Translations under genes and position numbers: made by a program
In this document: positions 1,026-58,443 of the stretch, piece by piece
Numbering within the stretch: position 1 is the stretch's first letter
How the letters are laid out: each line of letters starts with the position of its first letter
Notes under the pieces: generated by a model
The model's database searches: none
The model's input: the letters and a program-made list of their open reading frames with translations, nothing else
Told to the model about the DNA's origin: nothing
NCBI RefSeq assembly: GCF_032062105.1
Contig: NW_026930103.1
Span: 620,001-684,000 of the forward strand
Direction of reading: 5' to 3'
Length of the DNA: 64,000 nucleotides
Source of the DNA: Saccostrea cucullata
Lineage: Eukaryota

Positions 1026-4000
1026 TTATTTGTTGTCATTATTGTCATGGAAACAAGTGTTATTATCAACATCAACATAAATGACCTCTGCATTCGTGTT
1101 AGAGTTTTTTGTGCTGTTTTGCCGAGTGAAACCAAGAGAACCGAGACTGAAGGAGGCAGGAAACATAGACGTTGATATTTTCTTTTTCTTCTTGACAGGA
1201 GTAAGGCTGGAAGCTACAGAAAAAGATAAAAAAAATATTACAATACCAGCATACACAGAAGATTCATATTTCATAAGATTTCTATATGTACTTAAAGTTG
1301 ATGCAAAAGTTGAATTGCTCATCTAAGGGAAATTTGACTAAAACAAATTTTGCTCATTTTGTGACTAGCATTTGTTCAATTCTACCTCATGAATGCTCAT
1401 TACATGAAATAAAGAAAAGGCTATAAACCTTCTTAATTTTCATCATTTGTCTCTTTAATTCCAAAAGAAAGTGATGCAAAAAATCACCGTTTTATTTTTA
1501 TGACTTAATTATTCTTTATTCAAAATCTTGTAGTCTCCCTTAATGCGTATACATGTACATGACATGGAATAAGATACATTGCAAGAACTGTAGTCTTACA
1601 TCAGATTGTAAATAAATAATAATGAGCGGAATAACTGAAATACTGAATAATTAACCTGAAATGAACCGGCCATTTAATGACAAGGGAATACATATAACGT
1701 GTTTGTATTACATTCTGCAGTATTAATCCTGTCTTTATATCTAATTATTTACCTATTATTTCATCTAGTTCTCCTTCTGGAATACCTGCAGAGACAGCTC
1801 TACTGCGTAATGAGTCAATGCAGGCCTATAAAAAAACAAAATATTTTCTCAAGACATTGGTGATCATTGTATATGTACACGAACCTAGCATAACCTTAGA
1901 AGCTTGACTACCCGTATTGTTGGCACCGACTCATCCAAGTTTAACGTAAAATTTAGATCCAACATGTATAAGTAACTGGTATGAATTTCTATTAAGAATT
2001 ATAAAATATTCCTACAAAATAAATCACATTTGTATACAAGGGTTCATAGACGTGTAAAATCTTGCTCTTGTGTGAATGCGTTTTATGGAAGTGTTTTCTT
2101 TTTTCTTATATCTTTAAAGTGAGGGTGAATAAAGATTTTTTTTTTCATTTTTCAAGAAGAATCTCACTTCATCGCGATAATAAAATTAAAATAAAATACC
2201 CGTACCTGAAGTGCCTTATTGTCTGCTTTAGACGTTTTAAGATCACTGGCTACTTGTTTTTTCTGCTTATATAAAAGCTTCATCCTGAAGTGCTCGTGAT
2301 CAATAACTGCTACCACCAAACCTAAGTAAGGATAAAGAATAGGGTTAATATGATTGATTGCCTTCAGAAATTGCATCATTTATTTATTGTTCATTCAGGG
2401 CACTATCACCTCCAGTCGTTTTTGTTTTATAAAAGAATCTTCATCTGTCTGCCATCAAATGTATACAAGTAAATGGTCAGAAAAGATTCGTACATATTTC
2501 TCAGTTACAGTTATCCTTCCTTTACAGTTCGTAATAACTAAATTAACCCATTTTATAAAGATTCGCATTTGAATCTAAGCTCAATTGAGTACTTTGTATT
2601 ATTTCGATAGAATAAAGCGACTATGGTTTGGCAGTTTTTTGTCATGGCTTTACTTTTAGATAAATTGAGAAATGCATAATCATACAATGAATATTTAAAA
2701 TGATCAATAACTGTTCAATAGTTCAATAGTTGCAAAGATCAATAATATATGTAATGATCAATAACTGTTCAATAATTCAATAGATGCAAAGATCAATAAT
2801 ATATGTAATGATCAATAACTGTTCAATAGTTCAATAGTTGCAAAGATCAATAATATATGTAATGATCAAAAACTGTTCAGTATTTCTATAGATCAATGAT
2901 AAGCAATGAGTTCACAAACAATGGTCTACTGTATTATCCACATGTAATACATTAATTTATACTCGATTCTCATTATATCGCGGGTTTCATTGTATCGCGG
3001 TATATTCCAAAAAATCAGATACATAGCTCATATTCTTTTTGTTGAAAAAACTTTCTCTCTGTTGTCTAAATGTAATTCTTTGTGATGATTAAAATGCATG
3101 GAAGATGCCTCGAATTTTTTTTTTTTGTTGAAATAATAAGTAATTTTACAGATTTCCGTTTTCGTTTTTATTATATTTAGACCACTCAATTTTTAGTCTA
3201 GTAAAATCCATAATAAAGTTCATGTTTTGAAAGATTTTAGTTTGTACTATTGTTTATTTTTTGTGTAGAATTACATCGTAAATTTAAAAATAAGAATTGA
3301 AGTCTATGTCAACCATAAGTTTCCATGTTTTTCCATACCGCGATACTAGGAGACTCTCCAATTCAGTAGGTAAATAAGACTTCCTGTTTAAAAATAAACT
3401 ACAAATTAAACGATGCAAGATTGGAACATAATTTGACATTAAAAGCTTACGCCATAGTTTGGTTTATGAATATCATTTGAAGAAAGTTAAAGCAAAAAAA
3501 AAAATGAATTACACTTTTTATGCAAAAGTTTTAAGTACCGCGATATAATGAGACACCAGTATACATTAGTTATGCTTTTGAAAATATATTTATGCAGATC
3601 GTGACTGTTTAACAGAAACCAAATGAAAAATTCAAATTCTAAATTTATATTAATATGATCTATATATTTCTAATTTTAAAAAAAACTTAAAACATTAATG
3701 TTTTATTATCATTATTTCCTTACTGTGCTTTATTTGTATTATTTTGAGAAATTAAACTTTCAGATGTCACTGGGAAATTGGAAAAAAAATTCGCAGTTTG
3801 AAAACAGAAGCTACACACGAGGACCAAGATAATTTTTTTAATGAAACCATGCAGGGTAACGTTTCAGGTTGTACTCGTACATGCTTGGTCATTCTGTCGC
3901 TTAACTATTCGTCAAATGGTTGTCAGGAGTGGTCGTTTGAATTACTTCCTTAATATGTATTCATAAAAATATTTACATACATATAGGGGTTGTAAATATC

Positions 4001-7000
4001 TTGATGAGTTGAAATTTATGATAATGTTTCTATGGAAAGTCATTTTATCATACTTGAACTATAATCAAAAGTACAATTACACAATAAAACTTTTGCGAAA
4101 AGTTGAGAACCTTTCTCAATCAGATCCAGATATGAACTGTAACACTTGCACTTTCAAATAATCCAGAAAAAATACATTCTCATCATACATTTTGTCTTCA
4201 TGATGTATTTTTCGATCTGCTCCATTTTTAAAAATTGTTCTTTGGGTAAATTAAAACTATTACAGGTTTGAATCAATTTGTTATAAATATGTATTCATAA
4301 AAAATATTTACATACATGTACAATTACTAAATAAAACATTGGGGAAAAGTTGAGAACATTTCTCTTCCACATCCAGATAAAAACTTATACACTTTCACTA
4401 TCTTATAAATAATGCAGAAAGCACACTATTTCGTAATACATTTTGTCTTCATGGTTTGTTTTTGGATCTGCTCCATTATTTAAAATTGTTCTTTGGGTAA
4501 ATCAAAACTATACCACAAAAAATTATCTTTAATATATTTAAGAAAGTAAATCAACCGATTTTGTGGCCATAGAGTTTTCATCTTTAAAAGGACATTCCTT
4601 CTTTCTTACTAAACATGTAATCTAGCTTGTACAGCGAAAAATTAATTAATTAACACTGTGCTTTTTACTATAATTTCGAAATTTATGCTCCCAGGGATAG
4701 GGGATCTGGAACTAGGGTGGAGCTTTTTTGACACTTTATCAATTTTTAAGATGCTTATTTTTTCGCTGATAGATTACATGTTTAGTTAGAAAGTAAGAAT
4801 GTCCTTTTAAAGATGAAAACTCCACGGCCACAAAATCGGCTGATTTAGTGTATAACTCTAAATTTTTTCTTCCATTTTTAAAATAACAGATAACCAATCA
4901 ATATTATACTTACTGTTGACCACTCGAATGACTCTCCATGGCACAAGAAATGCCAAAATAACCACGAATTTCTGAATTTTGTAGGCACTTAGTCCTCTTA
5001 TAAAAACTAGATCCACCACAAAAGACGCCACCACGATAAAACCATCGAAGACCTTGAAATAGATTATTGTTACCTTATCTGCATGTTCATTTCAGGAACA
5101 TGAAATATAGCTGCATTTTGAAAACGGACAACATAATGGTATTTGCAACAAACAACCAACTCATTATTGTAAGTTTGTGATTAAGGATAACAACAGCATT
5201 TCTTTTTTTAATCCATTAATTGATGTAAAATTATTCTGCTGTATGATGTACATGGATATCCTTTTAAGCTTCCAAATGCATCGTGAGTAACTTAATTCTG
5301 TACTTTGTTTATCCTGACATATTATCCATCAAATCAAGCAAAATGACATCATAACTTAATTGTCATTACCTCTAACTTCTTTTCAAAATGTTCTTTTCCA
5401 CCACATATTACTTTTAAAATATTCTGAAATAAATTAGAATATTTATTTCAATGTTTTCCTGTATTTGGTATGTAATACTACACATAGTAGTCTAGAGCTG
5501 ATTTTTAAAAATCATGGATTGATAGAACTGTAACATAAATCTAAATCATAAACTTGGGATTGAACTATCGATACCTCCACAACCAATATGGCAAGGATAG
5601 AAATGCTGCAATAATGTAGTTTGTGAGCTAGAATCACTTCTAAACTATGTGAGTGATCGTCGTGTTGAATTTCTGGGTGACTCCTATTGCTAAAGTTCCA
5701 CTGATCATTGCTGACATTTGATGACCAAACTCCAGATGAGTTGTTAATGAAATATTCAGAATACACGCCAGTAGTCTCAAGGGACCGTTTGTCCAATTTC
5801 GGCTGTTGTTGATAATTAGTTTCATTATGTTGAGAATCCACAGAAGAAATAAACGCTAAAGGACTGTATGATGCAGAAGTTACCGATGTGAAATCCACTC
5901 GAGACGACAGAATCATGGAATGTAAAACATTGATGTCTGTTTCATAAAGGTTGTGTAAATCCTCTGGATATGTTGATTTCATTGTTTTCACGAAATATAA
6001 GTTAGCCATTTCTTCGTGGTCAAGAACTCCTGGAAAATCATGTTATTGAGTACATCATAGAAGAACACTCTAAAGCCACTGCAGAAATATGTCAATATTT
6101 GGCCTATGCTTAATAATTTTCAACAAAAGTCACGTAATGAAAAAATATGTCCCAAATTTAAAACCAGTCAAATAAATCAAAGGTAAAGCCTAGCTATATA
6201 TTGGCTAGTTAACTTAAACCATTATTATTATTTCTCGATTTTCTTTTCTACTGCATTAATTATAGAATTATCTGATTTGTTAAAATTGAGCTTAATGTGA
6301 GTATAAAACAAAGAAAGATTGGGTGACCGTCTAAATTTTGATATCAAAGAAAAAATATACTCACTCTTGAGATAGAATATATCCAATATGAGTTCCCCAA
6401 GCACGAGGACACAGTCAATAACATTTAAGATGACAATACACATCAACACATGTTTGGTATGCATTAAATTGTATCCCAAAAATCGTGACCTGTAAATCCA
6501 ATGAGAGTGTATCACACAGCGATAATATATATGTTAACAGAGTTCAAATGTTTCAGAATTACATTTTACAGGTCTTTAAAACAATTAAGAAACATCAAGC
6601 GAGTTTATTGATTTTGGAAGAGAGAGAGAGCACGCTATATATTAAAATGCATGCAGGCTAAATTATGAAAACTAATGTCTGACCTGCCAATACATGAAGA
6701 TGGTGGTTTTCGATTTTCCCTTTCTATTTCATATTCTAAACTCTTCTCTGTTTTGTCCAGTTCGGCATGAGCTTTTGCCATAGCTAAGACACCTGACGCC
6801 AGCGCCTAAAACATACCATAATAGATACTTCAGAGGGTAGGTAAACAACTGAGGTTAACTAAAAATGTTTAAACAGAAACGCTATATCTTCTGAAACAAA
6901 CTCTCATATTTTGTTTAAGTATTTTGGAGAAATGAATATTTATTTATTATTCAATCACAGTTTATTTTTGAAAATTTTTTTTTACAAGCTTTAGATGCAT

Positions 7001-7139
7001 TTATACAACAGTACGAAGAAGACTTGAATTTCAATCAGTTACAGTTAGTAACTTTTAAAGTAATTTATCAATAAAGACCAACCTTTAAGCCTGTGAATTC
7101 CTGCCTTCTCCTTTTCCTTTTTTGAGATAAAATCCCCAT
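1026..7139 (-). CDS. Voltage-gated proton channel, Hv3-like (HVCN1 family), paralogue A; 9 coding exons
   Basis: GT-AG exons in continuous phase: 7139-7083, 6805-6684, 6489-6365, 6029-5575, 5423-5370, 5052-4914, 2321-2206, 1825-1753, 1213-1026. S1 'LNVIDCVLVLGELILD' (cf. human Hv1 LVVLDALLVLAELILD, D112), S2 'HYCSISILAILVVENILK', S3 'VFDGFIVVASFVVDLVF', S4 'FLVPWRVIRVVNS', then a coiled-coil-like C-terminus; no pore domain. Confidence 0.9.
2701..2880. repeat. 54-bp minisatellite, about 3.3 copies (Hv-A intron)
   Basis: Unit tgatcaataactgttcaatagttcaatagttgcaaagatcaataatatatgtaa restarts at 2701, 2755, 2809, 2863. Confidence 0.9.
2958..3563. mobile_element. MITE / non-autonomous TIR element
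   Basis: Imperfect terminal inverted repeats tatactcgattctcattatatcgcgg ... ccgcgatataatgagacaccagtata; no ORF. Confidence 0.65.
3953..4510. repeat. Diverged local direct duplication
   Basis: aatatgtattcataaaaa...gatctgctccatt...aaaattgttctttgggtaaat.aaaacta occurs twice (about 3953-4260 and 4287-4510). Confidence 0.7.
4547..4848. mobile_element. MITE with about 75-bp inverted termini
   Basis: taaatcaaccgattttgtggccatagagttttcatctttaaaaggacatt...acatgtaatcta is mirrored by tagattacatgt...aatgtccttttaaagatgaaaactccacggccacaaaatcggctgattta. Confidence 0.75.
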
Positions 7140-17732: not shown

Positions 17733-20571
17733 CTACTCTCCAGAATGAACTGATATAAGTTCCGAGGTTTCTGAAGAAGAACTGATCAATCTCTCAGAGC
17801 GCTTTGTATTGTCATTAGATGATGAATGTCCAACTAAAAACGAAGGTAGGAGAGTATGAACTCCACCTGTCAGGTGATGCTTTTCCTTTTTCTTTCCTAC
17901 TTGGTAGGCTGCTACAAAAGTATTTAAAATAAAGAAGAATGGGGAAAACGTTAATGTGTGTAAAATATTATTAAGACTCGGATACCTGTTGTTTTCTATA
18001 ATACCTATTTGTGCATCTATATCACTTTCTGGAACCCCAGCACTTAATGCCAGTTCTCTCAAAGACTGTACACAGTCCTGGAATTAAAACGATATATAAT
18101 TAATTTAAGATTTGTAGATGTCATAGAATATAATTAAAGTACTAATTTTAAACACAGAATTAATTAAAATTCATATTTAAATGTTACACACACAACGGTA
18201 TTAAGTTTTATAATTTAATTATTAGTACATGTTCATCAGCTTACCTGCAGCGTTTCGATGTCAGTTTTACAGGTCTTTAATTCTTGTGTCACATTTTTCT
18301 TCTGTTTGTAAAGCAATTTCATTCTAAAATGGGCGTGGTCTGTCACAGCAACTATAAGACCTTAAAGAGATAAAAAAAAATTGTGTTTGATTTTCAAAAA
18401 TAAAAATATCTAATACTAAAGCAAAAGTATAAGGGCTAAAACGATTAAAATTACACAAAATATTAGAATGTATAGTATCTTTCATTGCCTGTGATTGAGA
18501 GTATTTCTTTTTATTACCTGTTTTTGCGACTTTATAAAAATCTATGTAAAAATGAATTAAAAAATCATATCCAATCACAAAACAAGAGAAATAGATATTT
18601 TCTTACTGTTTACAACTCGAATAATTCTCCATGGAACAAGAATAATCAAAATGACAAGAAATTTCTGGACTTTGAAAGAATGGACTCCTTTGATGAAAAC
18701 AAGATCCAGGATGAAGGAAAAGATTACTACGAAAGCATCAAACACCTAAATGAAAATGGTTAGAATTAATAAAAAATTCAATGCTTTAAATTCCAAAAAC
18801 AGATATGTAAGAGAAAGAACCGAGTATTCTCTCTCAGAATCAATATTTTGATACGTCTTTCAACCAATATCTTTATTGTCCTATTATATATTGGACAGAG
18901 AAAAGGTTAAACCCGAGAAAACGGTGACAGTTTTTTCATTTGTTGAAAAGGTTTATGAGTGGATTTGTTTCATTGGTAGCATTTTTTTTAAAGAGAGGAC
19001 AGTCCATGGAAACTTAATTTTAAAAAATAAGCAATAAATCCTTGGTGTTATATTGTGGACAGTACCAGTTATGAAAGAATTGTATCAAATTTGTAAACTT
19101 TCAGTTTTTTTAACTGATTTTAGAAAATGAAATAAAAAAAAAACCATACCTCTATCTTCTTCTCAAAGAATTCTCTTCCACTGCAGAGAAATTTAAAAAT
19201 GTTCTGAAACAGAAATTTTTGACATGGAATTTTTACATTGAATCGCAAAAGTGACTCAAGCACCTCTCTCCTATTTTAAAGGGTAAAAAGTAAAAATTGC
19301 TTTAGTTCTGGGATTCCAAATCATGGATTAAAACAATCAAAAGCTTACCTCAATAACCAGTATGGCAAGAATAGATAAGCTGAAGTAATGGAACAAATGG
19401 GCTAGCTTAACCTCTAGTGCGTATTGCAAAATGACACTATTTTCAAGTCCTATTAATGGTATAGTATCATTTGGCGAAGATAATTCATTTACAACACTTC
19501 GTTTGACAACACCATGATTTGAAGTTGGAAAAACATCACTGTTATTGGACGTTGGTAAAAATTCACTGTATACTGTATCCGAAGAATGGAGAGCTGAAAT
19601 CACATGTTGATTGTCGGTCGTCGAAGTGAAGTCAACATTGCCTGATAAAATTCGATTATATAACCCATCGATATCAGAGACTGCGATATTCATTAATTGC
19701 TGAGGGTATAAATGCTTCATTCCACCCATAAACAAACTGGCGCTTAGCTCTTCCTTATCCATGACTCCTGAAAAAGTATTCATTCAAAATATACTAGTAT
19801 GTAACTGTATCGTTATCTCCATTTATTTCAGCTCAAACCTTTAACATCACATACACATTTTTTTCAACAATTTCTCAGGTTTGTCTAAATGAGGCTTCAT
19901 AAAAATTGTTCATTTTTTTCATAGATTTTGGTCAAGAATCTATAAAGACAGGAATATATCAAAATGTTATAGAGGGTTGAAAAAGGCATTCAACTTCACA
20001 AAATAATTTTGCAAGTGACATCTGAATGAAAAAGTCTTCAAATAATAGGAATGCAAGCAATTCAAGTAATTTACCTTTAAGGTAATATATGTCCAGAAAA
20101 AGCTCTGCTAGAACCAGAATGCAATCTAACACATTCAGTACGACAATAAACAGTAAAATGTTTTTGGAGTGCATCAAGTGATGGCCATTGAACCTCAAAC
20201 TGTAAAAATATAGTTATTAGAATTCTATGTGTCATTTATATGTTAAATAAAATTCTTGTATGGAAGACGTTTATACTTTCAGCATACAACCTTGAACCAA
20301 AACAAAAATGTTCATTCAATTTTCTTGACACTGCTTTAAGGAAATTTTTAAAATAGTTTCTGAAAACTCAGAATAAAAACAGGTTATATACAAACCGTCC
20401 TATTTTGGAGTCTGGAGGTTTTCTGTTTTCCTTTTCTATCTCATTCTCAAGGAATTTTTCTGTCTTCAGAAGTTCAACGTGGGCCCGGGCAAAGGACAAG
20501 GATCCTGCTGCCAGAGCCCGCAGACCCTGACCATTTCCTTTTCTTACAGAATTCCTTGATGGTAAAACCAT
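17733..20571 (-). CDS. Voltage-gated proton channel, Hv3-like, paralogue B; 8 coding exons
   Basis: Exons 20571-20396, 20199-20075, 19767-19349, 19203-19150, 18745-18607, 18360-18245, 18077-18005, 17911-17733. S1 'LNVLDCILVLAELFLD', S2 'HYFSLSILAILVIENIFK', S3 'VFDAFVVIFSFILDLVF', S4 'ILVPWRIIRVVNS'. Same intron positions and phases as A and C except the first intron is absent. Confidence 0.9.
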
Positions 20572-40599: not shown

Positions 40600-41771
40600 G
40601 TACAAAGTCTGTTGAATTCGCGGGAAATGTTACACCAGCCAATAAAATTGCATTTTACATCAGAGAACATTTAGTTGGAGGGCAGAGTAAGTTGAGGTAA
40701 TATACATTTCCTATTGTTTTAAGAAAAAATATTTTCTGTATTCAACTTCACTAGTGTTTTGACAATACATTTACTTATTCAGAAATTGAAAAAAATAATG
40801 TCAAACACTTAATTTTAGTCGCTTTAAGCCTTAAATCCACTCCTCATCTGATTAACATGTTTGTACACCCCCTTATCCACCCAATCCTTAGAATTTGTAA
40901 TGAAGTTGCTTATATACATCACAGGCGTCGAAACCGGGGGGAGGGGGGGGGGGTAGTCCATTTTTGCACAGATATAGCCATGGCACAATGGGGCTCCTTC
41001 TACAAATGTTTTTTAGTGGGAGGGGTGTGTAATCCCCCCCCCCCCCTGTACCCTTGTTCAATTTGTTTCTGACACCTATGTGCAGTGTTCATTTACCCTC
41101 CCCTTTTTACTGTACAAAGTGTCTTCGAACACGTTGCCCCCCCCCCCCCCCATTTTATTGCAAAATAATCAAAAGATTTCGTGGTAATTGTAATCAGTTT
41201 AATTTAAATATTGTGTGGCTGGAATCTATATGATTTTTATCTTATAACCAAAATAATCTATATTTAATGATGTGGAAAAAAACCTAGACAAGATTCTTTG
41301 GAAACGATGTGCCATTGTTTAGGTAGTTACTAGTGCCTTAATATACATGTATCTACCTGTATAAAATTTTGATACACAATTTTTGTTAAATATTTTTTTC
41401 TGAATAAATCATTATTAGAGAAGGGGGCTGTCTATCAAAACAGTTGTGATCCTTTGTAGAAAATCGGGACCTAATAGCTTTTAATTGCTTTTATATACCA
41501 GTGATGAGGATTTATCTTTTAATTAGAACTTGTCTCAAATATTTTTTGTTCAAATAAAGAGTTACCTGAATTAAAATATGATATGGTTATGAAAATATTT
41601 CTCTCATAACCCCCCAATATTCAACATAGGGTATTAGGTCTATCAGCTCATGTATGACAATATGCATGCATGATTTTACGGAAATGACATTAAATAATTT
41701 ACTGCAACATGTAATGCTATTTTTTGTGAAGTTTCATATCATTTTCAGTATTACTGGTAAACAAGAAGGAA

Positions 41772-42839
41772 ATGGAGACTGTAAATCAACGTGGTAGACC
41801 ATATGTTAAAGGGAAAGCTCTTTCAAAAGACATGAGAAGTTTAATAATAAATGACTTAATTCAAGGTGGTGCTGTCAAAGGTAACCCTACCATTCCTCGT
41901 GGTCTAGGTGTTGAGTTGTCGCACAAATTTAAAGTGTCGAAATCGACAGTGTCAAATCTCTGGAAAAAATACAACGAGAAATTCTCGGTTTCTCCTCGCA
42001 AACCATTTCATGCAAGTACACGGAAAATAGGAGAAGAGGACTGTGAGTTTATTAAAGTATTGAAAACTGAACAACCTTCTATGCAATTAAAAACAATAAA
42101 AAATGAGTTACTTCGCCATTCAAACAGTATAACGCACGTCGGAATAGGAACGATTTCTAACACGATTCGAAAAGATCTCAACATGACATACAAAAAAATG
42201 TGTCTGTATCATAAAAATAGATTTAATATTCACAATCTCCAATATACACAAAGATTCCTTAACTATGTCGCGAATAAAGATCCATACACATTAAAGTTTA
42301 TGGATGAAATGGGAATCAGGTTGGTGGACGGTCAGCCAAACTACGGACATTCCATTAAAGGTACAAGATGCGTGGAAATGACCAGATATGACAGAACAGC
42401 CAACTATACCGTCAATTTGATCGTTGGTATTACAGGTGTTAAATATGTCTCTATTATTGATGGTCCATCAGATACTTTCAAGTATGTTGGCTTTATTGGA
42501 GAGGCAGCCAATAGTTTTACAGATGAGGGAGAGAGAGCATTCCAGTTGGGGGATACCCTGGTGATAGATAATGCCCCTATTCACCACCATACCGCCGAAA
42601 GAATCCTCAGAAATTGGCTACCGACTATAGGTGTAGATGTTCTGTTTTTACCTACCTATTCTCCAGATCTTAACCCAGCAGAAAAATGTTTTCTTAAAGT
42701 TAAGACTTTGATCAAGAGTGATAGATATGTAACTGCTCTACATAAAGATATGAAAGAGGCCGTACTACAAGCCTTCGGCGAAATTACTATGGCAGACACT
42801 TTGTCCTTCTTTCATGCAACAGATTGCATATTCGCCTAA
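41772..42839 (+). CDS. DD37E transposase (355 aa), inner copy
   Basis: Paired-domain-like N-terminus VNQRGRPYVKGKAL and HTH; catalytic FMDE, IDNAPIH, YSPDLNPAE with 37 residues between the second D and E. Confidence 0.93.
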   Translation: METVNQRGRPYVKGKALSKDMRSLIINDLIQGGAVKGNPTIPRGLGVELSHKFKVSKSTVSNLWKKYNEKFSVSPRKPFHASTRKIGEEDCEFIKVLKTEQPSMQLKTIKNELLRHSNSITHVGIGTISNTIRKDLNMTYKKMCLYHKNRFNIHNLQYTQRFLNYVANKDPYTLKFMDEMGIRLVDGQPNYGHSIKGTRCVEMTRYDRTANYTVNLIVGITGVKYVSIIDGPSDTFKYVGFIGEAANSFTDEGERAFQLGDTLVIDNAPIHHHTAERILRNWLPTIGVDVLFLPTYSPDLNPAEKCFLKVKTLIKSDRYVTALHKDMKEAVLQAFGEITMADTLSFFHATDCIFA

Positions 42840-45716
42840 CGAAGTTAATTTGAGCTTAAGTTGACATTGTAAAGAGTTGATCTAATCTTTGGATGTTGTG
42901 AAGGGAGCAAGCTGAATTTAATTCGACAGAAGCTGTCCTCGAGAAGTAAATACGTCTCCGTGCACCCCCCCCCCATAATCAGATCTAATTAAATGGCGCT
43001 AGTCCCTTAACCCCCGACCCCTAAGATTTTGTGTGCGGGAAGTTCTCGACCCAAATTTTTCTTCAAACTTATCCAGGTTTATACAATGTAGATTAACAGT
43101 GTCTAGTTTAAAAATTTGTAAATTTTTCATTGGTCATTTAAATAAAGTAGATGAAACATATCCGGCGGAGTAAAGAGTTCTTTGTTAATTACATGTACTT
43201 ATTACTTTTAGTGTTTTTCTCTGTGGATTGGAAAATGTTACACATGCACTAAATGTATATAAAGAAAAAAGAGAATAAATTTGTAGTATTTTATCATGCA
43301 ATTTGTGCATAGGACTTTTCTTTGGGATCCAAGAAAAATATCATTACTAACTTTTAATTTTTCATGTCACAATCATTCTCGAAATCCATGGATTTTGTTT
43401 CCATTCTATTTCCACAAAATTGAACAAAACGATGCTACTTGTATTTAAAAGAGGTCAACCAACACTGTGTATTTCCTCACAGTTTACATAATCTTTACGG
43501 TAGGAATATTGCGTTAAAATTTGTAATTGTCCGAGTTAACAAAAGCGATTATACCGTCGTAAAAGCAGCGATTTGCAATAAAAAGGGGGCTTCCTGTAAT
43601 TCGGGTCACAAAACACATACTGGAAAACCAAATTTAAAATTAAATGATTATGTTGAAAACTTATCAGAAACTGAAGTGATTGAATCTGATTGAAAATAGT
43701 TATTTCTAGTCAAATATCTCTTCAAACCCCGCTGGGTTTCTCGAAACATAGATTTATCATTTTGCTCTTTTGAAAAGTTGTTTAATACTATAACTGTTAT
43801 GATTGACTGTGTGAAATGATTGCGTACAAAAATCTGTCAAATTACATAACATCGACCGACATTATTCTGAACTGAAATTTACAACTGCTTTTCTCTCAGG
43901 AGAAATATACATCAAAAACTTGCGCAAACGTCATAGAGTGTAAAAAACAGGAAGCTCGTAGGTGGGGCTAGTAATCAGCTACATCGCTGTTGCAACCAAT
44001 GAGAATCAGCGTCATCATTTTACAGCCGGTAAACAAGTAGCGTCGAGAAAGTCACGCCCTACTGAAAGTCCAAAGAAGGGTTGAAATGCTCATAAATCTG
44101 TTGAAATTTGTGTCCAATAGATCAATAAAGTCATTTTCATCATCTTTATACATTATGCGCACGGCCGGCATACGTCCCAAATATTTAATTTGAGTTTGGA
44201 TAAGTCCTTCAAGACCTATAAATCCAAGAGATAAAAGTTCTCGGAGTGAAACACTCATCAGGGTACATCTTTCACTTCCATAATAATCATAATGTACCTT
44301 AAAATCAATTTCACAATAATCATCCGAAATTATCTTTGACACAGCCATGTCGCGCCCAATACTGTAATGTGATGCAATCTCCCGTGCAAACATGTACAAA
44401 GTCTGTTGAATTCGCGGGAAAAGTTACACCAGCCAATAAAATTGCATTTTACATCAGAGAACATTTAGTTGGAGGGCTGAGTAAGTTGAGGTAATATACA
44501 TTTCCTATTGTTTTAAGAAAAAATATTTTATGTATTCAACTTCACTAGTGTTTTGACGAATACATTTACTTATTCAGAATTTGAACAAATAATGTCAAAC
44601 AATTAATTTTAGTCGCTTTAAGCCTTAAATCTACTCCTCATCTGATTAACATTTTTCCTGTACACCCCCTTCTCCACCCAATCCTTAGAATTTGTAATGA
44701 AGTTGCTTATATACATCACAGGCGTCGAAACCGGGGGTGGGTGGGGTAGTCCATTTTTGCACAGATATAGCCATGGCACAATGGGGCTCATTCTACAAAT
44801 GTTTTTTTAGGGGGAGGGGTGTGTAATCCCCCCCCCTGTACCCTTGTTCAATTTGTTTCTGACACCTATGTGCAGTGTTCATTTACCCTCCCCTTTTTAC
44901 TGTACAAAGTGTCTTCGAACACGTTGCCCCCCCCCCCATTTTATTGAGTATAATCAAAAGATTTCGTGGAAATTGTAATCAGTTTAATATAAATATTGTG
45001 TGGCTGGAAGCTATATGATTTTCACCCTATAACCAAAACAATCTAAATGTTATGATGTGGAGAAAAACCTAGATAAAATAATTAAAAGTAGTTTTTACTG
45101 CATGGTTAAGATACTTTGGAAACGATGTGCCATTGTTTAGGTATAGTTACTAGTGCCTTAATATACATGTATCTACAGTACCTGTATAAGATTTTGATAC
45201 ACAATTTTTGTTAAATATTTTTTTCTAAATAAATCATTATTAGAGAAGGGGGCTGTCTATCAAAACAGTTGTGATCCTTTGTAGAAAATCGGGACCTAAT
45301 AGTAATTGCTTTTATATACCAGGGATGAGGATTTATCTTTTAATTAGAACTTGTCTCAAATATTTTTTGTTCAAATAAAGAGTTACCTGAATTAAAATAT
45401 GATATGGTTATGAAAATTACTCTCATAACCAGGGATGAGGATTTATTTTTTATTACTCATAATTAGAAACTTGTCTCAAATATTTTTTGTTCAAATAAAG
45501 AGTTACCTGAATTAAAATATGATATGGTTATGAAAATATTTCTCTCATAACCCCCCAATATTCAACATAGGGTATTAGGTCTATCAGCTCATGTATGACA
45601 ATATGCATGTATGATTTTACGGACATGACATTAAATAATTTACTGCTACATGTAATGCTATTTTTTGTGAAGTTTCAATCATATCATTTTCAGTATTACT
45701 GGTAAACAAGAAGGAA

Positions 45717-46784
45717 ATGGAGACTGTAAATCAACGTGGTAGACCATATGTTAAAGGGAAAGCCCTTTCAAAAGACATGAGAAGTTTAATAATCTATGAC
45801 TTAATTCAAGGTGGTGCTGTCAAAGGTAACCCCACCATTCCTCGTGGTTTAGGTGTTGAGTTGTCGCGCAAATTTAAAGTGTCGAAATCGACAGTGTCAA
45901 ATCTCTGGAAAAAATACAACGAGATATTCTCGGTTTCTCCTCGCAAACCATTTCATGCAAGTACACGGAAAATAGGAGAAGAGGACTGTGAGTTTATTAA
46001 AGTATTGAAAACTGAACAACCTTCTATGCAATTAAAAACAATAAAAAATGAGTTACTTCGCCATTCAAACAGTATAACGCACGTCGGAATAGGAACGATT
46101 TCTAACACGATTCGAAAAGATCTCAACATGACATACAAAAAAATGTGTCTGTATCATAAAAATAGATTTAATATTCACAATCTCCAATATACACAAAGAT
46201 TCCTTAACTATGTCGCGAATAAAGATCCATACACATTAAAGTTTATGGATGAAATGGGAATCAGGTTGGTGGACGGTCAGCCAAACTACGGACATTCCAT
46301 TAAAGGTACAAGATGCGTGGAAATGACCAGATATGACAGAACAGCCAACTATACCGTCAATTTGATCGTTGGCATTACAGGTGTTAAATATGTCGCTATT
46401 ATTGATGGTCCATCAGATACTTTCAAGTACGTTGGCTTTATTGGAGAGGCAGCCAATAGTTTTACAGATGAGGGAGAGAGAGCATTCCAGTTGGGGGATA
46501 CCCTGGTGATAGATAATGCCCCTATTCACCACCATACCGCCGAAAGAATCCTCAGAAATTGGCTACCGACTATAGGTGTAGATGTTCTGTTTTTACCCAC
46601 CTATTCTCCAGATCTCAACCCAGCAGAAAAATGTTTTCTTAAAGTTAAGACTTTGATCAAGAGTGATAGATATGTAACTGCTCTACATAAAGATATGAAA
46701 GAGGCCGTACTACAAGCCTTCGGCGAAATTACTATGGCAGACACTTTGTCCTTCTTTCATGCAACAGATTGCATATTCGCCTAA
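45717..46784 (+). CDS. DD37E transposase (355 aa), outer copy
   Basis: Intact; 4 amino-acid differences from 41772-42839. Confidence 0.93.
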   Translation: METVNQRGRPYVKGKALSKDMRSLIIYDLIQGGAVKGNPTIPRGLGVELSRKFKVSKSTVSNLWKKYNEIFSVSPRKPFHASTRKIGEEDCEFIKVLKTEQPSMQLKTIKNELLRHSNSITHVGIGTISNTIRKDLNMTYKKMCLYHKNRFNIHNLQYTQRFLNYVANKDPYTLKFMDEMGIRLVDGQPNYGHSIKGTRCVEMTRYDRTANYTVNLIVGITGVKYVAIIDGPSDTFKYVGFIGEAANSFTDEGERAFQLGDTLVIDNAPIHHHTAERILRNWLPTIGVDVLFLPTYSPDLNPAEKCFLKVKTLIKSDRYVTALHKDMKEAVLQAFGEITMADTLSFFHATDCIFA

Positions 46785-50267: not shown

Positions 50268-52155
50268 TTAACTGAGTAGTGGACAACAAAAATTAAATAT
50301 ACACCAAATATACATGGTATATCTGCAAACAAACTGAGATTTTTGTGAGCTGAAAGATACATTGGGAATGATATTAAGCCAGAAATCCATTTCCTGTTTT
50401 CTATACTTAATTCTAGAAGTAACGCCAGCACCACTTAACTGCACATAAGCCTGAGTTGATGAATCAAATGGAGGCCATTCGGGGAGGTTGTCATAGTTAG
50501 GGTCCCTGAAAAATTCAAAATTCTTGCATTCATTAAAAAAAATAATTTCAATAGTTACTTTTGACAAAAAAAAAATTCTATAAAGAAAAAGAAGGAGGAA
50601 AAAATACTAAACTCACTTACCCAGTTTTAGCAAAGTTTGACCAATATTTCCTCATAATGGCTGACAACTTCAAATCAGAATCCTTCGTCTTATATTTAGA
50701 ATTGGGATCCACAAAAGTTAAATTTTCTACGAAAAACAGAAACATTAAATCGGTGGTATGGGCAGAGCCTTTATACCAAGATGGTGGAGGAGATCCCATG
50801 AAAACTGGTAGCCCCTCCGTAAGAATAAACTGGTATCTTTTCGAGTTTGTCGTGTTTCCGGAAGAATGAGTGAATAGAGTTGACAAACTGGGCGCAATGA
50901 AAAATAAATCTGAGTACCAGTGTAATACGGAAAGACTTTGAAGAGTTATGTTGTCATTTCCCCCATACTCCTTGCACATCGCATTCATTACGCTAAGTTT
51001 GCCATTAAAATGATCAGTTACTGCAGTTGGAATGAGATGGTTGCAAAAGAAATCTCTAGGAATGCCTTCAGTCATGTTTAATCCGTAAGCAGTGAGAACA
51101 TCGAAAGTTTCTAGGTACAGCGACCCTTCCATGTCGCAGTTGCCAACCATTACATCCAAAGATTTGAAAAACATATATTCCTCTGATAATGGGCTTTTAA
51201 ACATTTTGTTGGGCGACATTTTGAAAAGTTCGCCGTCCACTACCGGTGTAAAGACATTGGTTATGAGTCTGTGAATGGAACTAAGCGAGCCTTTAGCAAA
51301 ATCGGATACTGCATGCTTTATAGAATCAACTGGTAAGTTCCGCATGCATTTTAGAACAAGTTCTGGGTTTGTGTTCATGTTACATCCGACTTTGTCAGTG
51401 ATTATTTCTGAGGATTGCCTCGTACTTCCAATGGCTAAAGGAGAATTAGCCGTCCCGCTTTGCAGAATGATTCGATGAAACAAACCTTTATTTTTCGGTA
51501 TAAGGGACAAGAGTCCCACGCTGAAACCTCCGGCTGATTCTCCGAACAAAGTTATTTTTTCCGGGTTTCCACCATAATCCTCGATATTATCTTTCACCCA
51601 CTGGATGGCTAACATCTGATCCCAGAGTCCATAATTCCCTTTGATAAAAACTTTATCTAAACTGTAGAAACCGAATATTCCAAGTCTGTAGTTTAACGTC
51701 ACAACAATGACGTCACCACTTAAAGCAAGCATACTTCCGTCATAGTAACTTCCATAACCAAAAATGTAGCCGCCTCCATGGATCCATATCATGACTGCTC
51801 TTTTGTGCGCATGCTTCAAAGGATAAGGGATGTAAATATTTAAGTTCAGACAATCTTCGCTCACTTTCCCGCCGAAGTTTGGATCATCCAAGAGTTGCAT
51901 ACAAACAGGTCCCAGAATTGTTCCATTTCGGGTTTCATTCCAGGCCCCGTACGGTTTTGGTTTTGCAAATCGCAGTTCATCAACTGGGGGCATTGCGTAA
52001 GGTATGTTTAGAAATTTCATAATCCCTGCTTGTGTTCCATTTAATACATGTTCTCCCATGATGTCGCCAAGTTTTGTATGGTGTATGATATTTCTTATGT
52101 ATTGTCCTAGAGAAAACGATAGGGAGTTAAGGATTATTACTCCACAAATGTTCAT
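50268..52155 (-). CDS. Type-B carboxylesterase / cholinesterase-family hydrolase; 2 coding exons
   Basis: Exons 52155-50621 and 50505-50268. Signal-peptide-like N-terminus, SEDCLNLNI, oxyanion hole WIHGGGY, nucleophile GESAG, Glu in GNCDMEG, His in GSAHTTDL, WSNFAKTGDPN, hydrophobic C-terminal tail. Confidence 0.92.
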
Positions 52156-52725
52156 TTTTGTGACCTGAAAGATAAAAGAAGATAAAATTCACGTTAAAAT
52201 ATGAAAATATAATTTTTTTTTTCATTTTGTTATGCTCTTGTATGAGAAAAAGTTTTTACATTTGAAGATTAAATCAAATTTTAAGTTAAGTATTTTAACA
52301 ATGAATTTCAAATTGTAATATTTTATGTTCTTTTATTCATACTGGTACAAATTTATATAGGTCTTTCTTGTATTTTCAAATCATTATTATTTCATTTTAT
52401 TCCATGTTTTGTTATTGAATTCTAGAACGTAAACTATAATAAACTATAGCTCTAGTAACTCTTTTTAAATTTCTCAAGAGATAGATTACATAAATTTATC
52501 ATCTAAAAAAAAACACAAACTCTTTGATGACGGTTTTTGATTTGATCTATGGAAAGAAGCTAAGCAACAATCTGAATAAAATCAAATCTTTGTTACGCTC
52601 CGAAATTCTGATAGTGAGCAAAGATGTGGTTTTAATCAAATTGAGCCAAACATAAAAAATATTTACATGTACAGTACCTACATATAAACTGCATCTCACA
52701 TGTTGTTTCCGCTTTGGTAACATAA

Positions 52726-53395: not shown

Positions 53396-53468
53396 AGGAT
53401 AAAATTATTTGTGCAAGAATATTTGTTATTCTTGATTTTCAATTGCTAGATTTTCCCCGGTGAAAAAA

Positions 53469-56400
53469 ATGTCAGAATCCCGTGGTAGTAATGTGAACCC
53501 CAATGACAAGGGTGGGGGTGAATCAAATCCTGATATTGAAACTAAAGTGAATTCTATGCAGTCCCAGATTTGTGATATTTCTACGGTGTTACAGAAACTT
53601 ACAAGGACTTTAGATCGTTTGGTTGACAAAGACCATGACATGACTGACTGTAGAAGTGAGTACAGTGATTACAGAACAATTGACAGAGTGAGTGAGCCTG
53701 ATGGTCATAGACATACTCTGCCCAGTGACGCAAACCAGTCACAATTTTGTTCGTTTGATTCGCGAACACAGGTACACCCTCATAATATTTTAGATAGACC
53801 ATCGGATTTTAATCCGTTCAGACCAAATTATGAAAATCAAAACCAGACTCGACAGACTGTCAGAGCAAAACCCGACACTTATGACGGCAGATCTAGTTGG
53901 ACAGACTTTATCACTCAGTTCGAAATTGTATGTCGGTTAAATAACTGGTCCAGTGAGATTAAAGCCCTACAATTAGCAGCTTGTTTGAGAGGCTCAGCCA
54001 GAAGTGTTCTGACTGACCTTAGACCCCATCAGCTTGACGATTATTATGAGTTAAAATTTGTTCTCCAAACTCGCTTCGAACCAAAGAATCAAACTGAAAT
54101 GTACCGCGCAGAAATGAATAGTTGGTATCGGAAAAGAGACGAAAGCCTCCCTGAATTAGCACAAGATATAAAACTATTGGCCAGACTTGCTTATCCCACA
54201 GCCCCGTGTGAAGTTAGGGATACTTTGGCATATAAATGTTTCCGTGATGCCTTACATGACCAAGATATGGGCGATTTGTCAGAGCGCGTCCGAAAATATT
54301 GACGAAGCGTTAAACCTTGCGTTGAAATTTGAAGCCTTCAAAATGAGCAGAAATCGGAAGTACACAAATACTCCATATTTGCATCGAGCAGGAGATTAGT
54401 GACCACAGCTATCAAGACCTGTATGTATGAAAATTCCCAGACCAATGTCTCGCGATCAGACCTCTCAAATCACAGAAATGAGACAAAGAAATGTTTCTAT
54501 TGTGGGAAACTGGGTGATTTTAAAAATAAGTGTAGAAAACGCCAGTTTGATCTACAAGCGGGAAAATATTTCCTCCCAAAGAATGAACGACAGACCAAAC
54601 TTTGCGGAGAGGTCCGAAACCTCTGAGATTATTCATGCACGTGATTGCGCTCACGGTCCTTTAAACGACCAGAGGCTGAGCCTGTAGGTCAAGTCTCAGC
54701 CTGTGATACTAAAACCCAAACTTGTTGTGAACCGAATGACAGTGATAGACCTAAAGAGCAAATATTTGAAATCAAAGAGGCCCGCAGTGATAGTTTATTT
54801 GTTGTTGCAAAATTGAATGATAGAAAAATAAATTGTTTGACTGATACTGGAGCCTCAGTTTCTGTATTACATAAACGAATTTTTTATGAAATTTCGGGGG
54901 ATGTAAAACCGAGTTTGAATAGAAATTGTGGGAAATTGAAAGTGGCTGATGGTGAAATGATTACCCCGGCGGGAGCCGCCCAGATGACTTTTGTTATTGA
55001 TGGTAAACCCAATAGCTATAGGATGTTAGTAGCCGATATTGAGGTACCCGCGGTACTAGGATATGATTTCCTGAGGGACAATAATTGTGAAATGAAACTT
55101 GGTGAGGGTACGCTCAAGTTAAATGGTGAATCGATTAGTCGTAGACTTCACAGCCAAATTCAGACCCTATTCAAACTGTCGTTGACTGAAAATGTGGTGA
55201 TACCTCCGTTGAGCGAAAGGATAATTCCAACAAGAATTTTGGGTGATCAGCCATTTGGGAAAACGGCTGTTGTTACGGATATAAGTCCATCTGTGTCAAA
55301 GAAAGGAATTCTAGTCGGGAAAAGTGTTTTTGACCCTAATAAATCTGAAATACCTGTGCGTGTTGTCAATGTTTCTGATACTCCACAAACCATTTACAAA
55401 AATACGGTTACGTCAGAATGTGAGATAGTTCTTGAGAGTGATGTAGTATCATTTCAAAATCGATCTTGTGATAAAATGAATGCGCATACCTTGAATAACC
55501 TTGACCTTTTAAAGGTACCAGAAGACAATATGTCTGTTCCTGACCATATCAAAGTTGTTCTTGACTCATGTAAAAACAATTTAAGCGATGTAGAATTGAC
55601 GAAAGTGTGCAATCTTCTGCGTAACTATTTAAGTGTGTTTGCAACCTCTAAATCGTCTTTAGAGGTTGCAAACAGATTGTGTTTTACACAAAATAAATAC
55701 ATAAAACAAGCTCCTAGACGTATACCCATGAACCAAAAAGAGAAAGTTTCGACGGAATTGAAACGAATGTTGGATGTTGGTGTTATTAACCCTCTAAATC
55801 TCCTTGGGCTTCCCCTATAGTCATTGTGCGCAAATCAGACGGCTCCATATTCTGTGTCGATTACCGTAAAGTCAATGAAGTCACATTAAAAGACTCTTAT
55901 CCTCTGCCCAGAATCAATGACTCCCTAGACGTATTACGCGGATCTTCGTGGTTTTCTGTACTTGATTTACAGTCAGGTTTCTGGCAGGTAAAAATGGATC
56001 CGTCAGACCAATAGAAAACAGCTTTCGTAACAAATACTGGACTATACGAGTTTACCAAGATGCCCTTCGGTCTTTGTAATAGTTCCGCGACTTTTGAGCA
56101 ACTCATGGAGAGTGTCTTAGCTGGATTACAATGGGAGACTTGTCTTGTTTACATCGATGATATCATCATCTTTTCTGAATTCTTTGAGACCCATTTAGAT
56201 CGTCTTCGTGATGTTTCAAAGAAAGGTCAAATTTCTAGGACATATAGTGTCTGAACATGGTATCGAACCATGTCCCAGTAAAATTGAAGCAGTCAAGGAT
56301 TGGCCCATACCCTTTAATGTGAAAGACCTAAGAAGCATTCTGGGAACCATTTCATATTATCGCCGTTTTATCAAAGGATTTGCTGACATTGCGAAGGCTT

Positions 56401-58443
56401 TGCATAAACTGACCGAGAAAACAGTTCAGTTCAGATGTACCAAAGAATGTGATATTGCTTTTCAGCGTCTTAAATCTGCTTTAATGACAAAACCTATAAT
56501 GTCCTACCCAGATATGTTCAAGTCATTTATATTAGATACCGATGCTAGTGGCACAGCTATCGGTGCTGTTTCGTCCCAGGTTCATGAAGATGGAGAACAT
56601 GTTGTTGCATATTTTACAGGTGCTTGTCCAAGCATGAGCGACAGTATTGTATTACCAAGAAAGAGCTCTTAGATGTTGTCGAAGCAATTAAGCACTTTCA
56701 TTACTATTTATTTGGAACAAAATTTCTTGTTAGGACAGATCATGGTGCTCTTAGCTGGTTACGACGTTTTAAAAATCCTGAGGGTCAGCTAGCTAGGTGG
56801 ATCCAAGTTCTTGATACATACAACTTTGACTTTCGGCATCGTCCTGGAAAACAACACTCTAATGCTGATGGTTTGTCTCGTCGACCATGCATTTCTTGTA
56901 AATTTTGCGAGAGACAAGAAGACAAAATCACTCATTCCAGCGAAGCTGTTGTCCATATGTCAACCCAAACGTCCTGTCTGGACTACGAATCAGTTGAGGA
57001 TCAGCATCCAGTCAATGCGGTTTCTACAGTGGAACCCAGTTCAGTTTCAGGGGACGATAACCTTTCTTGGTTCCAGTCAAAGTCAAATGATGAACTCTCA
57101 CAAGCCCAGAGACAAGATCCTGTTCTGAAACATCTCTTCTCCCTGAAAGAAAAATACAAAGATGAACCTCCTAAGTGGCATGAAGTTTCTCACCTATCCC
57201 CAGCCCTCAAATCATATTGGTCACAGTGGAAAAGAATTGAACTTGTTAATGGTGTTCTATACAGAAGATGGGTGGATGTTGATAAAAATTCTGAAAGACT
57301 GCAACTGTTGGTACCAAAATGTTCGCAGAGTGAAATCTTAACTTTGTTACATGACTCTTTGCTTTCAGGTCACTTAGGCATAACCAAGACCATACACAAA
57401 ATTAGGGAAAGATTCTATGGGTCAGATTATATGTCCCACACCAGAAGATGGATTGAGAAGTGTACTGTGTGTCAAAAGCGTAAAACCCCTTCCAAACCAA
57501 TTAGAGGAGCTAGGGTCCAATACAATGTTGGTGCACCCTTAGAGAGAATAGCTCTTGATATAATGGGCCCGTTGCCACAGACCCAGAAAGGACACAAATA
57601 TATATTGGTTATTACAGATTATTTCACGAAATGGGCAGAAGCCTACCCTATGATAGATCAGGAAGCAAGTACCATTGCCGATTTCTTGATTGATTTCATT
57701 TGTCATTATGGTTTGCCTTTACAAATTCATTCCGACCAAGGGAGACAATTCCAGTCTAATCTTTTTAAGGAACACTGTAAAACCCTTGGGATTGATCAAA
57801 CAAGAACCTCTCCTTACCACCCTCAAAGTGATGGACTCGTAGAGAGAATTAACAGGACAATTATTGATATGCTTAGTAAAACCATTATCAAAAGTCAAAG
57901 AGATTGGAACAGAAAATTACCATTTGTGATGCTAGCATACAGGTCCTCTATTCAAGAGAGCACTAAGGAATCTCCCTGTTTTTTGATGTTCGGTCGTGAA
58001 CCCCTTTTACCGGTTGACTTATTGTATGGAAAATGCCAAGACCGCAAAATAGTGTCCGATTATGTACAAGACCTTGTAACAAAATTGTGGAATGTGCATG
58101 AATCTGCTCGTGAGAATATTTTGAAAGCTAGTGACAGACAAAAGAAATATTATGACCTAAAGACCAGTGACTAAACTTTTTCCCTAGGGGATGGTGTTTT
58201 TGTTATTTAAACCCAGTGAAAATTAAGGGGAAATCACCAAAACTTATGTGTAAATGGGAGGATCCCTACACTATAGTCAGAAAAGTGTCAGATTTGATCT
58301 ACGATATTAAGACTTCTTCAACTTCCAAGTCAAAAGTTGTACATGAGAACAGATTGAAACCATATTTTGGGAGAATGAGAATGTGGTTTGTACCACCCAG
58401 TGATAGAAACACCCGTGCCCAGGGGACCCAAAATGACCAATAA
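53469..58443 (+). pseudogene. gag-pol pseudogene (multiple frameshifts and stops)
   Basis: Gag (KPDTYDG, degenerate knuckle CFYCGKLGDFKNKC), protease LTDTGAS, RT MPFGL/YIDD, RNase H DTDAS/RTDH, integrase HHCC plus LDIMGP/HSDQG/GLVER and a C-terminal SH3-like tail. Confidence 0.92.

Follow-up and report, generated by a model that had tools for sequence, protein, structure and literature searches.

Three tandem proton channel genes of the Hv3 family in the oyster Saccostrea cucullata, with predicted leaky and weakly voltage-responsive products

Six-frame translation of a 64,000-nucleotide stretch of the Saccostrea cucullata genome (contig NW_026930103.1, positions 620,001 to 684,000; referred to below as the window) revealed three Hv-like genes, designated A, B and C, arranged in tandem on the minus strand. 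Their exons and the codons discussed below, numbered after the equivalent residues of human Hv1, are located as follows:

1026-7139, minus strand: gene A, Hv3-type, 9 coding exons, 442 aa
7139-7083, 6805-6684, 6489-6365, 6029-5575, 5423-5370, 5052-4914, 2321-2206, 1825-1753, 1213-1026, minus strand: coding exons of gene A
6365-6489, minus strand: S1 exon of gene A, with the N109-equivalent codon AAT at 6423-6425 and the selectivity Asp codon GAC at 6414-6416
5575-6029, minus strand: exon of gene A encoding the long S1-S2 loop and S2, with a dibasic KR|S at 5785-5790
5614-5616, 5584-5586 and 5575-5577, minus strand: S2 codons of gene A for H140, L150 and E153
4914-5052, minus strand: S3-S4 exon of gene A, with V205 at 4942-4944 and P206 at 4939-4941
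4933-4935, 4924-4926 and 4915-4917, minus strand: S4 codons of gene A for R208, R211 and N214
17733-20571, minus strand: gene B, Hv3-type, 8 coding exons, 426 aa
20571-20396, 20199-20075, 19767-19349, 19203-19150, 18745-18607, 18360-18245, 18077-18005, 17911-17733, minus strand: coding exons of gene B
20133-20135, 20124-20126, 19358-19360 and 18632-18637, minus strand: codons of gene B for N109, D112, L150 and V-P; loop KR|S at 19499-19504
27715-32185, minus strand: gene C, Hv3-type, 9 coding exons, 429 aa
32185-32138, 31967-31846, 31531-31407, 31086-30656, 30383-30330, 30188-30050, 28463-28348, 28083-28011, 27896-27715, minus strand: coding exons of gene C
31465-31467, 31456-31458, 30665-30667 and 30075-30080, minus strand: codons of gene C for N109, D112, L150 and V-P

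The GT-AG rule is followed at all eight introns of gene A and all eight of gene C. Their products are identical to two proteins annotated by NCBI as uncharacterized in S. cucullata, LOC134282843 (P0002; 442 of 442 residues) and LOC134282845 (P0003; 429 of 429), and this exact correspondence rules out a pseudogene or misassembly in both cases. Gene B is a model built in this analysis, with seven GT-AG introns and with the first exon and last acceptor inferred; its frame is open up to the terminal stop, which makes a pseudogene or misassembly unlikely. Intron 1 of A and C is apparently missing from gene B at 20396-20571 (8 versus 9 coding exons, with a predicted start), and protein P0108 of Saccostrea echinata is its likely orthologue. 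Pairwise identity among the three products is 49-53% over the full length and 67-80% in the membrane core. In RNA contigs ∼95% identical to the window, all eight introns of gene A were skipped in three of four runs and five of the eight in the fourth. Coverage of genes B and C was thin and mostly confined to one run of four, in tables swamped by repeats and listing no exon joins. A tblastn search found no fourth Hv copy in the 64-kb window or in the adjoining 10 kb on its left side. The span 4914-6489, which the initial annotation had given for all three channels, coincides exactly with the four exons that encode the membrane helices of gene A, while B and C lie outside it.

The window also contains other coding sequences. 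Two near-identical DDE transposase ORFs lie on the plus strand at 41730-42839 and 45639-46784; the former carries a Pfam DDE_3 domain and a paired-box-like N-terminus, and the latter was assigned by sequence likeness. Duplicated minus-strand ORFs of unassigned kind (37932-40629 and 44052-44423) adjoin them. A carboxylesterase-family ORF of 523 aa occupies a single frame at 50617-52188 (minus strand; Pfam COesterase, E 1.9e-112), and LTR-retrotransposon-like ORFs with aspartyl protease, RNase H and integrase domains are spread over several frames at 53436-58174 (plus strand).

The gene A protein was aligned by HMMER with human Hv1 chain 5OQK (phmmer E 1.3e-07), where chain position plus 79 gives the published D112/H140/E153 numbering. 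This placed N82 on V109, D85 on D112, H240 on H140, I249 on F149, L250 on F150, E253 on E153, and V308-P309-W310 on R205-L206-W207. All three genes encode N109, D112, E119, D123, H140, L150, E153, D174 and D185, followed by V205, P206, W207, R208, R211 and N214. The S4 motif reads VPWRVIR in A, VPWRIIR in B and VPWRVVR in C, the first arginine (R1) being replaced by Val in each, and the RxWRxxR/K motif of canonical Hv1, Hv2 and Hv4 channels is absent. The remaining gasket residues are hydrophobic (position 177 is I, V and I in A, B and C, and position 178 is V). An independent MAFFT alignment of 139 sequences showed V, F and R in the altered columns in 24 of 24 canonical channels. Phe cannot enter position 150 by a one-residue shift, since position 149 is I, I and V in A, B and C, and the register is fixed by conserved flanking residues. 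A shifted register restoring Phe or Val was thus refuted by both alignments. The changes initially read by eye (R205/L206 to V-P, V109 to N and F150 to L) hold in the HMMER and MAFFT alignments and in the codons, as does the complete list of residues said to be kept. Human Hv1 (HVCN1; 5OQK) and the canonical Hv1 of the same genome (L009) share D112, E119, D123, H140, E153, D174, D185, W207, R208, R211 and N214 with the window genes, but have R205-L206, V109, F150 and a short S1-S2 loop; V109, F150 and R205 are all retained in L009.

Pfam barely recognises the three products: Ion_trans was detected in only one of them, and below the cut-off. An AlphaFold model based on the 139-sequence alignment reached a pLDDT of ∼90 over the helices, with a disordered loop; an earlier model from 10 sequences (pLDDT 43.7) was discarded. 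Among 60 re-aligned chains, which included no Hv1 chain, the best match was the Ci-VSP voltage sensor (Z 14.1, rmsd 3.9, 135 residues aligned). A Foldseek search with the predicted model gave no match at E ≤ 0.001. Judged from alignment and model together, the window's Hv3 genes encode a four-helix voltage-sensor fold.

The initial annotation did not recognise these genes as members of the described Hv3 family. In section 2.1.4 of PMC10377628, this molluscan ("unconventional") family is defined by the motif xPWRxxR together with a very large S1-S2 loop; the same source describes up to eight Hv3 paralogues per bivalve and much larger, hugely variable intracellular domains. Genes A, B and C carry this motif, and the spacer between D123 and H140 is 143, 131 and 135 aa long, respectively, versus ∼20 aa in the genome's Hv1. 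The Asp aligned to human D112 supplies the acidic S1 selectivity filter in all three. By these sequence features, A, B and C are intact tandem paralogues of the Hv3 family, and new, so far unrecorded members of this already described group.

Among 10 matching S3-S4 exons in the Saccostrea genome, eight are of the xPW type and two are canonical. The canonical ones belong to near-identical Hv1 copies on different contigs (L009 and L010), possibly uncollapsed haplotypes. One Hv3 paralogue (L005 / L011:5394-9610; G000:C23227) reads LPWGVIR, having lost R1 and R2 and kept a single S4 arginine together with N109 and D112; the same motif also occurs in Mytilus, Pinctada and Ylistrum proteins. L007, L008, P0100 and P0103 belong to a divergent Hv3 subgroup with Trp at the F182 position and S or A at position 109, and P0100 and P0103 have Gln at 119.

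A member of the family, AcHv3 of Aplysia californica, has been recorded by Chaves et al. (PMC10911540), whose available text describes a channel without R1 and with a proline before the S4 Trp, proton-selective and leaky, with an e-fold change per ∼60 mV versus 4-6 mV for AcHv1 and AcHv2. Its location in organelles is those authors' inference from retention motifs in the 535-aa tail. We identified AcHv3 as LOC101855857 (P0083), in which the length of 980 aa, L429, P430 and the 35-aa N-terminus agree with the description in PMC10911540. Core identity (S1-S4 plus flank) between A, B or C and AcHv3 is 48-53%, and that between gene A and the genome's Hv1 is 33%. AcHv3 shares with the window genes the S1 Asp, xPWRxxR, L150, I/V177, V178 and a long His-containing S1-S2 loop with a basic cleavage-type site. 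It differs in having T109 instead of N109, L instead of V205 and V instead of F182, a loop of 299 aa (131-143 aa in A, B and C) and an N-terminus of 35 aa (∼70 aa). The tail after N214 is ∼125 aa in A, B and C, 100 aa in AcHv1 and 535 aa in AcHv3, and AcHv3 is more than twice as long as the window proteins (426-442 aa). In a quick tree (86 of 107 sequences, 143 columns), AcHv3 fell into a T109 clade with SH-aLRT 100, and the window genes into a nine-row group whose named members are oysters, with a weak support of 85. On this sequence evidence, AcHv3 is not a one-to-one orthologue of A, B or C. Since it lies in a separate clade, the literature found covers measurements of one of many Hv3 subgroups. 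Aplysia also has a paralogue with N109 (LOC101857936), of which no recording was found in the literature.

The altered gasket was traced across the family in 225 gathered sequences, of which 164 with complete S1-S4 were used and 61 dropped. In the 128 proteins with proline in the S4 motif (xP proteins), position 150 is L in 101, I in 14, M in 10, V in 3 and never F. Position 109 is N in 69, C in 30, A in 10, T, S and V in 6 each, and G in 1; N109 thus marks a large Hv3 subgroup, so far unrecorded, and is found in bivalves and gastropods, the Aplysia paralogue included. At the D112 equivalent, 125 proteins have Asp and 3 have Glu; 28 proteins vary at E153. V109 and F150 occur together in all 25 R1-bearing proteins, while the 11 proteins lacking both R1 and the proline are mixed, with F150 in four. 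When representatives at 50% identity were taken (100 complete of 150), F150 was present in 0 of 65 xP and 24 of 24 R1 proteins. AcHv3, with T109 and L150, lacks Phe150 like other xP channels. The gasket changes are thus family-wide among xP proteins, and the idea that they are peculiar to this locus was rejected. The loss of Phe150 was probably a single ancestral event, so the xP counts are not independent. In its available part, PMC10377628 mentions neither this loss across the family nor the N, C, T, S or A at position 109.

The initial annotation proposed proton-selective channels that are weakly voltage-gated or constitutively leaky. This is probably right, the behaviour having been measured in the homologue AcHv3, but it is not new (PMC10911540); with both the class and its leakiness already published, the core of the finding is no surprise. 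By analogy with AcHv3, A, B and C probably form channels that are selective for protons, fail to close completely and respond only weakly to voltage. Pairing of D112 with R208 and R211 would keep proton selectivity. Without R1, the outer D112-R1 lock would be gone and the gating charge reduced by one, while the proline would loosen the top of S4. Together these two changes would be the main cause of the phenotype, with little charge moving and a poorly sealed resting state. Replacement of the charge-transfer Phe by Leu would lower the barrier to opening and Asn109 would wet the gasket, both likely contributing to the leak but not essential to it.

Precedents for closed-state leak through a polar residue 109 or loss of R1 exist among engineered gasket mutants (PMC6754559) and a somatic mutant of human Hv1, R205W, which leaks when closed with its gasket intact and has been compared with AcHv3 (PMC11853527). 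According to the accessible part of PMC10911540, leak has not been reported for S4 Arg-to-Ala changes, and its authors question whether the R-to-L change by itself explains the leak. They name a breached gasket as a possible cause of the AcHv3 leak, without naming residues. A gasket breached by N109 with L150 as the main cause, with an N109 subgroup leakier than AcHv3, is a reading that we consider unlikely. In its favour, Banh et al. (PMC6754559) list closed/open leak of 0.40 for V109D, 0.38 for F150D and 0.164 for V109A/F150A, although V109A, V109T and F150A singly do not leak; Asn is as polar as Asp (both -3.5 on the Kyte-Doolittle scale); and xP proteins have no Phe150 and hardly any Val109. 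These counts are, however, probably non-independent, and AcHv3 leaks with T109, a residue that is tight when introduced alone into human Hv1. Leu is more hydrophobic than Phe on the Kyte-Doolittle scale (3.8 versus 2.8), though less so on the GES scale (2.8 versus 3.7). Human F150L shifts V1/2 (26.9 versus 61.7 mV) with the slope unchanged (12.3 versus 11.6 mV; Wu et al., PMC9646954, Table S1), and the gasket mutants in PMC6754559 are still voltage-gated. The leak table there holds neither V109N nor F150L, its mutants are without the S4 proline, and no description of a V109N proton channel was found in the literature.

The initial claim that polar gasket substitutions cause the leak therefore stands in part. 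L150 is nonpolar, and R205W and AcHv3 leak with an intact gasket and with T109/L150, respectively, so N109 is not required; given the leak of V109D and V109A/F150A, N109 with L150 may still add to it. We infer that S4 best accounts for the weak voltage dependence and that L150, judging from the human mutant, favours opening.

It is considerably less probable that Hv3 channels of the N109 type shut tightly and use two arginines for gating, with leak confined to the AcHv3 clade or produced by overexpression. AcHv3 does differ at positions 109 and 182 and belongs to a separate clade, and gating persists in human R205A, which keeps 0.63 of the wild-type gating charge (PMC4969798), but xPWRxxR and L150 are common to A, B, C and AcHv3, and residue 109 is more polar in the window genes. 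Drift of A, B and C away from proton conduction, towards non-conducting sensors or loop-based receptors, is very improbable: the PWGxxR paralogue without R2 in the same genome and the variable E153 point that way, but D112, W207, R208, R211, E153, D174 and D185 are intact in all three genes, AcHv3 conducts protons (PMC10911540), and non-conduction of the TMEM266 type is likewise disfavoured by the S1 Asp and by the similarity to AcHv3.

Furin cleaves at the consensus R-X-K/R-R. Gene C contains two matches in its product:

30800-30811, minus strand: predicted furin-type site RRKR|AA, gene C aa 191-194, S1-S2 loop
30917-30928, minus strand: second match in gene C, RPRR|A

The corresponding loop motif is RRKR|SS in AcHv3, and A and B have only dibasic KR|S. 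Although the S1-S2 loop aligns poorly across Hv3, R-X-K/R-R was found in 70 of 129 xP loops (shuffled mean 4.2, maximum 10 of 300) and in 35 of 65 representative loops (shuffled mean 2.2, maximum 7), followed by A or S in 22 of these 35. The motif followed by A, S, G, D or E occurs in 27 of 65 loops versus 0.8 expected, compared with 3 of 65 N-termini and 6 of 65 C-termini. The bare motif is commoner than in shuffled sequences in the cytosolic N-terminus too (23 of 65 versus 5.8) and slightly enriched in the C-terminus (13 versus 5.9, maximum 12). It is absent from all seven long loops of R1-bearing channels and present in five of nine relatives lacking R1 and the proline, one of them a bryozoan. 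Only in the loop do N-glycosylation sequons reach twice the expected number (210 versus 101.5), which fits a luminal position of the loop.

From these patterns we tentatively propose, at somewhat less than even probability, that Hv3 proteins are precursors cut by furin-like convertases in the outer S1-S2 loop, S1 (the selectivity helix) and S2-S4 then persisting as two chains, with secretory-pathway processing controlling or sorting a standing proton leak and the N109 subgroup representing a natural gasket-breached form. Furin and convertases are absent from the available parts of the Hv3 papers PMC10911540 and PMC10377628, the latter not mentioning a convertase site. Cleavage of the Hv3 loop was not found in the literature; the loop site or the gasket residues may already be noted in an announced family survey ("in preparation").

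The probable role of these channels is to provide a constant proton conductance across organelle or secretory membranes, although the retention motifs from which an organelle location was deduced lie in the 535-aa tail of AcHv3, and the tails of A, B and C measure ∼125 aa. In the part of PMC10911540 available, the AcHv3 authors left weak gating versus a breached gasket undecided, and the alignment presented here makes this question testable. The variation of position 109 by clade (N, C, T, S/A, V) provides a natural series for recording. Should the convertase site prove to be used, it would represent a new mode of regulation for a voltage-sensor proton channel.
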